This document shows, piece after piece, positions 21,025-50,330 of a DNA stretch of 64,000 nucleotides. Under the pieces are notes generated by a model, which saw only the letters and a program-made list of their open reading frames with translations, was not told the origin of the DNA and did not search any database. Within the stretch, counting starts at the first letter, position 1; every line of letters starts with the position of its first letter. The DNA comes from an uncultured virus (IMG/VR IMGVR_UViG_3300028805_000054) (lineage: Duplodnaviria > Heunggongvirae > Uroviricota > Caudoviricetes). Position numbers and translations under genes: made by a program. The DNA lies in the IMG/VR virus record IMGVR_UViG_3300028805_000054; one strand, 5' to 3'.

Positions 21025-23451
21025 TTAAAAGATTTCTTCTACCATTCCCTGTAAGCGCTGTCTAGTAATCTCTCTAGGGTCATCTACAGCTTGTTTTTCT
21101 AGTCCCTTCATAGTCATCGTATATCCAGGACTAACACCTAATTCTGTTCCTTCTAGCATATCAAGTCTAAGACCCCAACAACATTGTTCAATGGAGTCAA
21201 AGATATCCTTACTTCCTATACCATCGTTGGAATCAAAACTAGAAATATCATCATTTCCGGTTCCATCTGCTTTCCAAGTCCCCGAAGAAGCTTTAACAGG
21301 GTGATCAACTTTGATTTTACCACCAGGAGTTGATACATATCTTAGATCATATGCCTCACGAAGAAGTCTGTGATTGATTGGTATCTTAATTAGCTCCAAG
21401 TTTATAAGACTCTTTAAATATTGAGCTGGTTCTGGAAGACGATCAGTGCTAATGTTTCTACAAGGTATCATATCCCTCTCCAAATCTTGTTGTAGCTGTA
21501 TACTATGTGAAGAATCTGATGAAACCCTTACATCGTAGTATTTATTTAATTCTTTGATTAAATCGTAGAAATGAGAGATACTAGTTTGTTGTCCTGGAAT
21601 TCGTGATATTCCTATATTAACTAATGATTTTATTAGAGGAAATTCAACTTTATTAACTGTCTTTTTCCCTTCTAGCATTACTATACTTAATCCTGAGAGG
21701 TCATGTTTACTAGATAAATCTAATCCTACCCATAAAGGAGTGCGGTATGGAACTAATTCTAAGGCTTTTTTAATTTTATCGTAGAGTCTATCCTTAAGAT
21801 CAAAGAAATCAACGGCTATAATTTCAGGAAGTTTGTTTTTATATCCAGACATGCAGTTTACCAGATGACTTATATCTCCATTGAAAAACAACGAAGACCC
21901 AGCCAAAGGAACACCGGCTTTATCCATAAGGCATTTCCTCAGATCCATATTAGCCTCTGGAAGAAGCGATATTGGCATGTTAATGATTCTATCTGGATCA
22001 AACTCAGGAGATACTCTACCATTCTCATCAGGATAAATTTTCTGAGGTGGGGTTTTAGGATCTCCCGCATAAACCATGAAAGTATTATTCCCTGGTTGTT
22101 TGAGCTCTGGGTATAATTCTGGTCTTACATTCCATTGTGGCTCCGACACTGTCAATAGCATCTTTTTATCTGGAATCATCTCTTTGAATCTCTCAGTCGG
22201 TTGTGCGTCACCGTTGGCAGAGCTATCTAAAACAAATCCTCCAACAAGTTGAAGTGTTTTCTTACTAAAACGGCTATGTACACGTCCCCAAATTGTATTT
22301 AATGTATCTATAGCTAAATTATCTTGATTGTTACCTTCTAAGCCATTTCCCCAAAAATTAATTTCAGAAAAAAGCGCCCAACGTTTTATATTCCTTAGTT
22401 TCCTAAAGCACTGACTATATCTTAACTGATGTGAATATACATCAGCAAAACCCATTTCGAATGACGTATCAATAGTCACTCTACTCTCCCGATACGGAGA
22501 TAGTCGATACAGGTTCCCATAAAGGGCTTCCCACGGGGTTACCATGTCTTTATTTAAAAGATTTAGGCTTCACCGTTAGCCTTCATTATCTGAAGACCCG
22601 ATTAATGACATCGTAAAGGTTTAACAGGCCTGAGCTAACTGCTTGATTATCAGCCATATACGACCAAATCGGTACCCAATCCAGAACGTCTAGATCTTGG
22701 ACTTCCTACATATACATTAAATTTAAGTTTTGGATTTTTTGTTGTTCTAAAGAAAGGGGATAATTGTAATACATCTTTTTTAAACCAATATACAAAATCT
22801 CGCTCTGCTAATTCAGTATTGACGTGAAAGACAATTGCTGAGAGAGGGCGTCTCGCGATACCTAATGTTTTTGCCGGATTAGAAAGGCAGAGAAGGCGAC
22901 TAAAATTATAAGATAACTGTATTCTTCCAATTGTGCTCTTACCTACAACTATCTGATTGTCAGGTAGTTACGTCATTATATCTCTATAATGTTAAGACTA
23001 TATTATCATTTAAATGTCACATCTAATTAGTCGTTGAAGTTATCATACTTTTATAGATAACTAGCTGATTTTCCTTAAGGAATTTCCAGCTTTTAATGTG
23101 ATTATATAGGACTAGGTATAAGTTTAATCCTATGGCACCACTCAGGATTTGATATGGTTTTGCCGTTAATATACAAGAGGGGTAAATTTCTTTTAATACC
23201 TTCTTCCAATAGTTAAAAACACTAGACCCTCCATTGAAAAAGAATTCATTACCAAGATAAAAATCGTCGGAATAAAACTCTTCAATCTCAGGTGGTTTTC
23301 TAGAGTAGCCTAAGGCTTTAAGGGCGACCCAAGTACGCTCCTCATCAGTTAATTTACTATACTGTACCTCTAGACTAGCATTTTCGATCTCCCGTGCATT
23401 GAAATCTTTACTATTGCTATGATCTATAAAATTTCTCTCATTCATACTCAC
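21025..23451 (-). CDS. terL: Terminase large subunit, three exons (23451-23127, 22945-22663, 22381-21025; 654 aa spliced)
   Basis: Splicing restores Walker A SGAIGLGKST and Walker B region GTDLVWALFSEINF; C-terminal nuclease VGLDLS...SKDIFDS; exon lengths sum to 1965 nt (in frame). Confidence 0.85.
22382..22662 (-). ncRNA. Group I intron (IA-like, 281 nt, no ORF) in terL
   Basis: P AACGGTGAA, Q AACCCCGTGG, R GTATCGACTA, S AAGATATAGTC; extra hairpins after P7; 5' exon ends in U, intron ends in G. Confidence 0.85.
22946..23126 (-). ncRNA. Compact group I intron (181 nt) in the terL Walker A codons
   Basis: P1 ATAGGAT/GTCCTAT with U-G at the splice site; P10 TACCTA/TAGGTA; P3 TCACAT/ATGTGA; R TTCAACGACTA; S ATATAGTCT; terminal G. 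Confidence 0.85.
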
Positions 23452-23459
23452 GATCTCCT

Positions 23460-23651
23460 TTACTCTTTATCACCCTCTGAAAATAGACTTACTCGTTTGG
23501 TAGTCTTTTTCCTTAGTAGTCCTGGATCAAAGGGGTGTGTTTTAATCCATTCTGTACTTTGTCTTACTTCCTTAGCTATTTCTTTCCTTATTGCCTCATC
23601 AGAAATAATTTTGGCAGCGGAAGCAAATGTTTTCTGTCTTTTTATTTTCAT
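23460..23651 (-). CDS. Leader-family small protein
   Basis: MKIKRQKTFA start. Confidence 0.6.
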   Translation of the reverse strand: MKIKRQKTFASAAKIISDEAIRKEIAKEVRQSTEWIKTHPFDPGLLRKKTTKRVSLFSEGDKE

Positions 23652-29780: not shown

Positions 29781-29878
29781 TTCTCGTGATAGGATTCAAA
29801 CCTATGACCTTCTCCTTAGGACGGAGCGGCTCTTATTATCGTTATAAGGCTAAACTTATAACTTTGAGCTACACGAGC
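29781..29878 (-). tRNA. Atypical or degenerate tRNA-Arg(CCT) with a hairpin inserted in the D loop
   Basis: CTCGTG/CACGAG acceptor, GCTC/GAGC D stem, CTCC-GTCCTAA-GGAG anticodon arm, ATAGG-TTTGAAT-CCTAT T arm. Confidence 0.55.
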
Positions 29879-49532: not shown

Positions 49533-50036
49533 GTGAAGATAAAAGACGTTAGGTTAAAGACAAATGGAGAATATGTATGTCTAACTTTATGGCTTATGCT
49601 CCCAGACGTTTATACATTTTGGTGGGGACTGGGACAGGGAGATCGTGACTGGCTGGAACTCTGTTGGAAGGAAAAGAGACTAGAAGATATAGAAAAGTTT
49701 ATGGAAGGAACCAGGCTTAGTCTTTGTCGCGGGAGTATTAAGATCGGGGCAAGAGGGAGATTACCAAAGAAGAAATTTTCATGGACTAGATTTAAGAGGA
49801 GAACTTTTGGAATATGGACAGAACTTAATACTCCTAAACCTCCGATGAGAAATACCCGCGACGTTCTTATAAGCCGGATCACACGCTTCCTAACCCTTCT
49901 TGAGATACCTTCCAATATTATCATCCCAAACTTGAAAGATTATATTACACTCTATATACTAAAAAGAGATCATCAGCAACCCACGACTAACGATACCATC
50001 GGGTCGAGGGCATGTAAATGCCACTATGCTGATTAG
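49533..50036 (+). CDS. Hypothetical protein whose 3' end is replaced by the IscB element left end
   Basis: ORF reads into the element after ...ILKRD. Confidence 0.55.
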   Translation: MKIKDVRLKTNGEYVCLTLWLMLPDVYTFWWGLGQGDRDWLELCWKEKRLEDIEKFMEGTRLSLCRGSIKIGARGRLPKKKFSWTRFKRRTFGIWTELNTPKPPMRNTRDVLISRITRFLTLLEIPSNIIIPNLKDYITLYILKRDHQQPTTNDTIGSRACKCHYAD

Positions 50037-50330
50037 TCTAAGTGAAGTCTCTATGTGTCACGAGATGATAGAAAGAGCTGAACTACGTTATGTGTGAATG
50101 TAAGAATGTTATCTCGTATTTAACTTCTTATACAATAGGTACCTATGGATATTCTTCCAAGTCTGTAGCTCTACGATTTATGGTTAAAAGTTTCTGCTGG
50201 GTAGGAAACAGTGCTGTAAATAATAAACCACATAATAACATTGACGATGGGAGTACTACCTTTAAAGTTGTTGATCATAATAATATGATTAATAATAATA
50301 AAGTGTCTTATTGTTAAACAATTTTTAAAT
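49955..50330 (+). ncRNA. omegaRNA (HEARO-type) with guide derived from the 5' flank
   Basis: Typical blocks GATTAGTCTAAG, ACTACGTT, ATAGGTACC, CCAAGTCTGTAGCTCTACG, GTTAAAAG, ACAGTG, AACATTGACGATGGG. Confidence 0.8.

Follow-up and report, generated by a model that had tools for sequence, protein, structure and literature searches.

Can the large terminase gene (terL) of a phage be expressed when its Walker A motif is interrupted by 181 nucleotides (nt), and if so, is the interruption removed as an intron? The question is raised by an uncultured virus of the class Caudoviricetes (IMG/VR record IMGVR_UViG_3300028805_000054), whose DNA stretch of 64,000 nt is referred to here as the window. An original prediction, made from the letters of the window, had proposed an exceptionally small group I intron that should be active in this gene. 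Our analysis indicates that the element is very probably a genuine and active group I intron of 181 nt, lacking both an open reading frame (ORF) and the P2 helix, which lies in the Walker A codons of terL in a phage from the ruminant gut that is related to the Jug jumbo phages and is removed by ordinary group I splicing. The evidence comprises an intact homologue that reads through the junction, a complete group I core recognised by covariance models, compensatory changes in a related locus, and an RNA contig in which the exons are joined.

The host gene and its two interruptions

The window is phage-like, has a G+C content (GC) of about 0.29–0.43, and contains an amidase lysin gene as well as terL. 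Sheep-gut metagenome runs contain the window DNA, while cattle and goat gut runs contain its relatives. One gene was found to be split over three minus-strand open frames (23445..23127, 22945..22663 and 22381..21025). Searches of Pfam and PHROGs with the gene pieces returned nothing useful, and the gene was named terL from two sources only: a tblastn comparison, in which the largest piece resembled large-terminase genes of cultured phages at 23–27% identity, and the homologues of that piece. A large protein collection holds 49 such homologues, among them the intact protein P0002 (656 amino acids, 82% identity). A search of GenBank phage DNA gave a sole match of 64 nt, in two Enterococcus phages, located upstream of the intron. 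The exons are as follows.

23127..23445, minus strand: terL exon 1, counted from its first ATG (106 codons and one further nt); aligns to P0002 residues 1–106.
22663..22945, minus strand: terL exon 2, which opens with TAGGTA (22945..22940), the 6 nt paired by the P10 guide.
21025..22381, minus strand: terL exon 3, through the stop codon (ORF listing, homologues).

P0002 reads ILSGAIGLGKSTMGRIQ where frames 1 and 2 meet and GLGTDLIWALYSEINFW where frames 2 and 3 meet, uninterrupted in both cases. Since P0002 is continuous at both points, the terL of the window is interrupted twice. When both insertions (introns 1 and 2 below) were deleted in silico, a reading frame of 1959 nt and 652 amino acids with zero internal stops was obtained, and its product aligned with P0002 from end to end at 79% identity. 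Joining exons 1 and 2 restores both the reading frame and the Walker A motif G-x4-GKST. If the first insertion is retained, the exon-1 frame runs into a stop codon inside it and the ORF ends at 140 amino acids. Judged from these alignments, the host gene is a distant large terminase, with the insertion in its Walker A (P-loop) codons. An intein or a translational bypass was rejected as an explanation, because 181 is not divisible by 3, the exon-1 frame meets a stop within the insertion, and the P-loop would be split.

Anatomy and family of the 181-nt intron

The insertion was compared with two covariance models, the Rfam group I model RF00028 and a model termed R1, which was derived from 22 introns on jumbo-phage contigs of IMG/VR, with the window left out. 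Its structure was also predicted as a minimum-free-energy (MFE) fold. The parts identified in this way are listed below, from the end of exon 1 to the 3′ splice site; the RNA contig, the related metagenome contig L205 and the covariation within the family are described further on.

22946..23126, minus strand: group I intron of 181 nt, without an ORF and without P2, ending in a terminal G (RF00028, R1, MFE fold, RNA contig).
23133..23127, minus strand: P1 5′ strand ATAGGAT, the last 7 nt of exon 1, pairing with GTCCTAT.
23126..23119, minus strand: P1 loop TAAACTTA (direct sequence reading).
23118..23113, minus strand: P10 guide TACCTA, which co-varies with exon 2 in L205.
23112..23106, minus strand: P1 guide GTCCTAT; G23112 pairs with T23127, giving the T·G at the splice site (P1 is in the MFE fold).
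From 23105, minus strand: J1/3, ATAAT, 5 nt between the P1 guide and P3.
23095..23101, minus strand: P3 5′ strand TCACATT, with its partner GATGTGA at 23023..23017 (R1 alignment, MFE fold, family covariation).
23064..23090, minus strand: arm of P4 and P5. P4 is GCTGG (23090..23086) with TCAGC (23068..23064); P5 is TTCC (23082..23079) with GGAA (23074..23071), loop TTAA (both RF00028, R1, MFE fold).
23038..23062, minus strand: P6 hairpin, AGTTATC (23062..23056) with GATAACT (23044..23038), 7 bp and an 11-nt loop (R1, MFE fold).
23037..23033, minus strand: J6/7, TCAAC, at the start of the catalytic centre (22996..23037).
23032..23028 and 23000..22996, minus strand: P7, GACTA with TAGTC (matching the RF00028 and R1 consensus blocks).
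23023..23017, minus strand: P3 3′ strand, preceded by J7/3 (catalytic centre).
23016..23007, minus strand: P8, CAT with ATG, 3 bp, loop TTAA (family covariation).
23006..23001, minus strand: J8/7, ATAATA (catalytic centre; matches the RF00028 and R1 consensus).
22975..22990, minus strand: P9 hairpin, ATTATA with TATAAT and a GNRA-type GAGA loop (RF00028, MFE fold; identical in L205).
22946..22967, minus strand: 3′ terminal hairpin, CTACCTGA with TCAGATAG and one C·A mismatch, followed by TT and the terminal G22946.

The element thus carries the features by which group I introns are recognised: a P1 with T·G, a P10, a terminal G, a core from P3 to P9, and conserved joiners. P2 is absent because only 5 nt separate the P1 guide from P3. 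The coordinates given in the original prediction were borne out, on the minus strand, as was its claim that P2 is missing, and in every helix that was checked its assignment (P1, P10, P3, P4, P5, P6, P7, a tiny P8 and P9) was correct. The MFE fold recovers P1, P3, P4, P5, P6 and P9 (z = −2.98), and 1 of 200 shuffles folds as well as the real sequence. In that fold, the start of exon 2 is paired by a second TACCT copy (22966..22962) located in the 3′ hairpin. This alternative pairing is not conserved in L205 and was set aside in favour of P10. We note that the copy at 22962–22966 is a possible competitor of the first, which lies in the guide at 23113–23118.

The comparison with RF00028, which the original prediction had named as a check, gave, when run over 1.1 kb, an alignment to the full model with 28.7 bits and E 4.2e-5, a score that stays below the family's gathering score. 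With R1, the intron was found in all 64 kb (filters off) at 69.7 bits and E 2.9e-12, while the next-best matches had E values of 0.58 and 0.94. In the full-length alignments of the intron to the two models, 27 of 28 model pairs are standard. P7 is unchanged in all 22 R1 seed sequences, and across the seeds P3, P4, P5, P6 and P8 co-vary strongly. In alignment A2, 94.3% of the cells are paired and 143 cells are changed on both sides; none of 500 shuffles reaches that, and slid controls have 30–42% of their cells paired. The model-fitted alignment A3, made of 148 matches with 75 distinct rows, again showed covariation, with 94.7% paired. The window intron ranks 100th of the 148 R1 matches, and its 69.7 bits compare with 95–140 for typical members. 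By these scores, the 181-nt intron is a divergent member of a miniature group I family of gut jumbo phages.

The general model performs poorly on the relatives as well. Applied to four related loci in a 16-kb search, RF00028 found only the intron of locus L076, at 34.7 bits; the 171-nt intron of L016 went undetected, as did the L010 and L018 insertions. RF00028 under-scores the whole miniature family, and with scores under the Rfam threshold these introns escape standard annotation, a gap that a family-specific model such as R1 closes.

Evidence for splicing and its alternatives

If the intron is spliced, RNA from the phage should contain the joined exons. Four sequencing runs were aligned to positions 22250..23550, of which X9, a sheep-gut metatranscriptome available as assembled contigs, is the only RNA library. 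One X9 contig of 151 nt matches 22804..22945 with 0 mismatches and continues with 9 letters equal to 23127..23135, which is exactly the predicted exon–exon junction. Positions 22381 and 22663 are adjacent in another X9 contig, which skips intron 2. No X9 contig covers the interior of intron 1, which is present in DNA contigs of X3, X5 and X7. The X9 junction contig supports splicing, short of proof.

Further evidence was provided by L205, a contig recovered in a metagenome scan that has 87% DNA identity to the window. The first exon-2 codons of L205 contain two synonymous changes, and both are matched by changes in the P10 guide, turning an A-T pair into G-C and a T-A pair into C-G. Such tracking of silent exon changes by the guide is predicted if selection maintains accurate choice of the 3′ splice site. 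The 3′ hairpin of L205 is kept via T·G and G·T changes, and its C·A mismatch becomes T·G. The remaining differences fall in loops and joiners only, bar one P5 pair that changes from T-A to T·G. Among the relatives, the P5 change from T-A to T·G is at position 23071, the change at 23077 is in a loop, and all changes at 23048–23054 are within the P6 loop. Another metagenome contig, the GC-rich L204, shares only 24 nt and was judged a chance match. Taken with the intact homologue over the junction, the ligated-exon contig and the compensatory P10 changes make the activity claimed in the original prediction very likely; the 181-nt intron is probably removed from terL RNA and functional.

The course of the reaction may be described from the established chemistry of the group I intron family. 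The guide GTCCTAT would pair with the last seven bases of exon 1 with a T·G where the RNA is to be cleaved. P7 would bind a free guanosine, which would then attack after T23127. The adjacent guide TACCTA would hold the first six bases of exon 2 in P10, and the terminal G22946 would replace the free guanosine. The exons would be ligated, and the P-loop and the reading frame restored.

Some observations weigh against this reading. The RF00028 score falls short of the Rfam gathering score of 50, and both whole-window searches with this model do not list the 181-nt intron. The intron-1 junction in X9 is one assembled contig with a depth of 2.2 and only 9 nt on its far side; RNA libraries can contain DNA, and a possible source is a DNA variant in X9 that has the same exons but no intron. 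As to mobility, Pfam found no homing endonuclease in the 15 ORFs within about 6 kb, and the intron itself is ORF-less. Finally, the absence of P2 and the 3-bp P8 reduce the usual tertiary clamps, so that autonomous self-splicing is not assured.

The junction contig could have a different origin if the insertion stays in the transcript. In that case, this copy of terL would be a disrupted pseudogene or would be expressed in fragments, and the contig would come from DNA or RNA of a variant phage without the intron. Relatives do have intron-less alleles, and the depth and short overhang of the contig, as well as the presence of DNA in RNA libraries, would agree with such a source. However, both junction contigs have 0 mismatches to the exons of the window, while divergence exceeds 10% in the known relatives without the intron. 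The exons are under purifying selection and form a full-length frame after both introns are removed, the guide follows synonymous exon changes in L205, which is unexpected for a dead insertion, and terL is essential for a tailed phage. We therefore regard a permanently retained insertion as very improbable.

Even less credible is the proposal that the element is a small internal group I-like ribozyme of the GIR1 (lariat-capping) type, which does not splice. The available text of PMC12880540 suggests group I-like internal ribozymes in jumbo phages on the basis of a mean length of about 206 nt. Here, the insertion has a P10, a terminal G and a P1 that includes the exon T·G, and the contig with ligated exons speaks for splicing. 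Moreover, the element stands alone in coding sequence, without a larger twin-ribozyme intron or an adjacent endonuclease gene. As the introns described here are full splicing introns, the suggestion does not fit the data.

A different matter is whether the RNA acts without help. It may be a real group I intron that is too stripped-down to self-splice, and that can fold and splice in vivo only with an RNA chaperone or a protein supplied by phage or host, a reading which we consider quite plausible, if short of probable. Without P2 and with 3 bp in P8, a clamp of the L2–P8 type, as in small introns such as that of Azoarcus, cannot form. The intron is AT-rich (GC 0.26), the frequency of its MFE structure in the ensemble is low (0.0027), and some phage introns splice in vivo and not in vitro, according to the accessible part of PMC11878797. 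Against a need for help, the core joiners agree with the consensus, and neither a maturase-like gene nor another candidate cofactor gene was seen by Pfam in the 15 ORFs nearby. The only obvious remaining clamp is the GNRA-type L9 loop (GAGA), which could dock on P5.

Distribution in gut phages and comparison with known systems

Alignment of 12 homologues retrieved 70 terL loci from IMG/VR, many of them on contigs of 200–400 kb. The Walker A site is uninterrupted in 38 of these loci and carries a 171-nt insertion in 24, while the other 8 are cut off or unmatched to the motif. This insertion measures exactly 171 nt: the matches span 2263 and 2092 nt in otherwise equal loci. Its splice sites lie after ...GCCAT and ...TTTG, and its removal restores the P-loop. 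This intron has a 7-bp P1 (T·G), a 7-bp P10 and no P2, and shares core blocks with the window intron; it interrupts the same motif, at a site 5 nt upstream of that in the window. A 176-nt intron was inferred in L076, L103 and L106 (7-bp P1, 8-bp P10, open frame). In L205, intron 1 is present as a variant of about 179 nt and intron 2 is exactly absent. The lengths assigned by our intron-boundary script are reliable only at a high combined score for P1 and P10 (171, 176, 181, 212–213, 236 and 239 nt); 22 of 72 entries had no solution, and the many lengths with low scores are to be ignored.

Intron-less alleles are represented by P0002 and by contig 7 of X3, which replaces 325 nt by 144 (325 − 181 = 144). 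Such patchy presence and absence among close relatives points to a mobile element. From this distribution we infer that spread may occur via free-standing nucleases or by recombination between co-infecting phages. An exact pattern of the 23-nt core had zero matches in IMG/VR. A pattern of the core blocks was found in at least 133 IMG/VR stretches, often several per contig, and among the matches listed 40 core variants could be told apart, with compensatory changes plainly visible; 22 of these variants went into R1. The 181-nt intron is one of these prolific miniature group I introns, which occupy many genes in gut jumbo phages.

Two of the loci were densely populated. Positions 182–1189 of L112 and 156–1196 of L121 have five R1 matches each, within about 1.0–1.2 kb, and the cores in L112 are 197–236 nt apart; these are miniature intron arrays in jumbo-phage genes, with very short exons between the introns. 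Another IMG/VR contig, L010, contains a different 171-nt insertion (about 2104–2274) at the second terL site, after ...GSDVL, to which RF00028 gave no match in the 16-kb search.

The second interruption of terL in the window, together with two RNA-like elements elsewhere in it, is given below.

22382..22662, minus strand: second terL group I intron (intron 2), 281 nt, between ...GLGTDLV and WALFSEINFW; RF00028 40.8 bits; RNA contig joint 22381|22663.
49972–50259, plus strand: HEARO RNA (HNH endonuclease-associated RNA, RF02033), 88.6 bits against a gathering score of 83.
29781–29878, minus strand: tRNA-like match (38.4 bits to RF00005) whose D-arm region contains an insertion of 29 nt.

Intron 2 goes unrecognised by R1 and is thus of another type. 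ARAGORN reported zero tRNAs across the whole window, the tRNA-like match to RF00005 included.

Introns that go unrecognised leave traces in protein databases. Of the gene calls from close relatives, P0001 (505 amino acids) starts inside intron 2, and P0003 (543 amino acids) starts just past the Walker A site; both are truncated terL fragments in public protein sets, resulting from unrecognised introns. With the present results, a lineage from the ruminant gut also joins the jumbo phages in which essential genes are full of miniature introns. A natural group I intron that measures 171–181 nt, lacks P2 and is apparently spliced makes a candidate for the smallest complete splicing ribozyme, and could be of use in folding studies and in compact circular-RNA (permuted intron–exon) designs. 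A stronger claim would be that, among natural group I introns that have a complete core and splice in vivo, none are shorter than the P2-less ones in terL of jumbo phages from the ruminant and human gut (171, about 176, about 179 and 181 nt), and that these self-splice free of protein through little beyond the L9 contact. We hold this claim as a whole to be unlikely. If these introns did self-splice unaided and were the shortest complete ones on record, they would set a new lower size limit and supply a new minimal model ribozyme. Phrase searches of the literature for a group I intron size record returned nothing relevant.

The nearest known system is that of the Jug gut jumbo phages, for which 2513 group I introns, on average about 206 nt long, were reported in 136 of 139 genomes (available text of PMC12880540, Sci Adv 2026; preprint PMC12363816, August 2025). 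In the same available text, the Jug terL is split into two or three pieces by group I introns, RNA reads support 37 of 76 predicted introns, and the terL of one Jug group is placed with huge phages of sheep and cows. Like the window intron, which is recognised by a model built solely from such introns (R1), the Jug introns have the core blocks TCAACGACTAA ... GATRATATAGTC and the same helices; they too reside in terL, split essential genes, lack ORFs, measure about 170–240 nt and occur in gut phages. The window TerL is 38–48% identical to that of the contigs of its IMG/VR relatives, and its intron site lies downstream of theirs by the 5 nt described above. Most members of the Jug-type family that were examined have a P2 hairpin, whereas the window intron has none.

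The Azoarcus intron, a GC-rich member of subgroup IC3, resembles the window intron in being compact and ORF-less, in lacking large peripheral domains, and in its GNRA-type L9. Self-splicing has been shown for the Azoarcus intron, while the window intron is known here from its sequence and from assembled contigs. The window intron differs in having no P2 (the loop of which clamps P8 in Azoarcus-like introns), a P8 of 3 bp and an extra 3′ terminal hairpin. It interrupts a protein-coding gene, whereas the Azoarcus intron lies in a tRNA anticodon loop. With the Azoarcus intron at 205 nt (as given in the accessible part of PMC13168695), the window intron is 24 nt shorter, and the range of 171–181 nt is 12–17% below that length. 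The exceptional size claimed in the original prediction stands in this comparison; it does not stand among related phages, whose introns of 171 nt (24 of 70 loci), 176 nt (inferred) and about 179 nt are as short or shorter. These, and the mean of about 206 nt in the available text of PMC12880540, largely amount to the many equally short natural introns that the original prediction had named as grounds for setting its size claim aside.

Bacillus phages of the Bastillevirinae also have group I introns in terL, sometimes two or three, that splice in vivo, some of them not in vitro; theirs average 802 ± 342 nt and usually contain homing-endonuclease genes, as far as the accessible part of PMC11878797 goes, while the window intron has 181 nt and no ORF. 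Very small group I-type introns are cited in the accessible part of PMC3160393. To judge from their length, these would be too short for a complete P3–P9 core, whereas the window intron has every core helix. In conclusion, this kind of element is already published, and the 181-nt intron is an additional, divergent and P2-less member of it, small but not unique.

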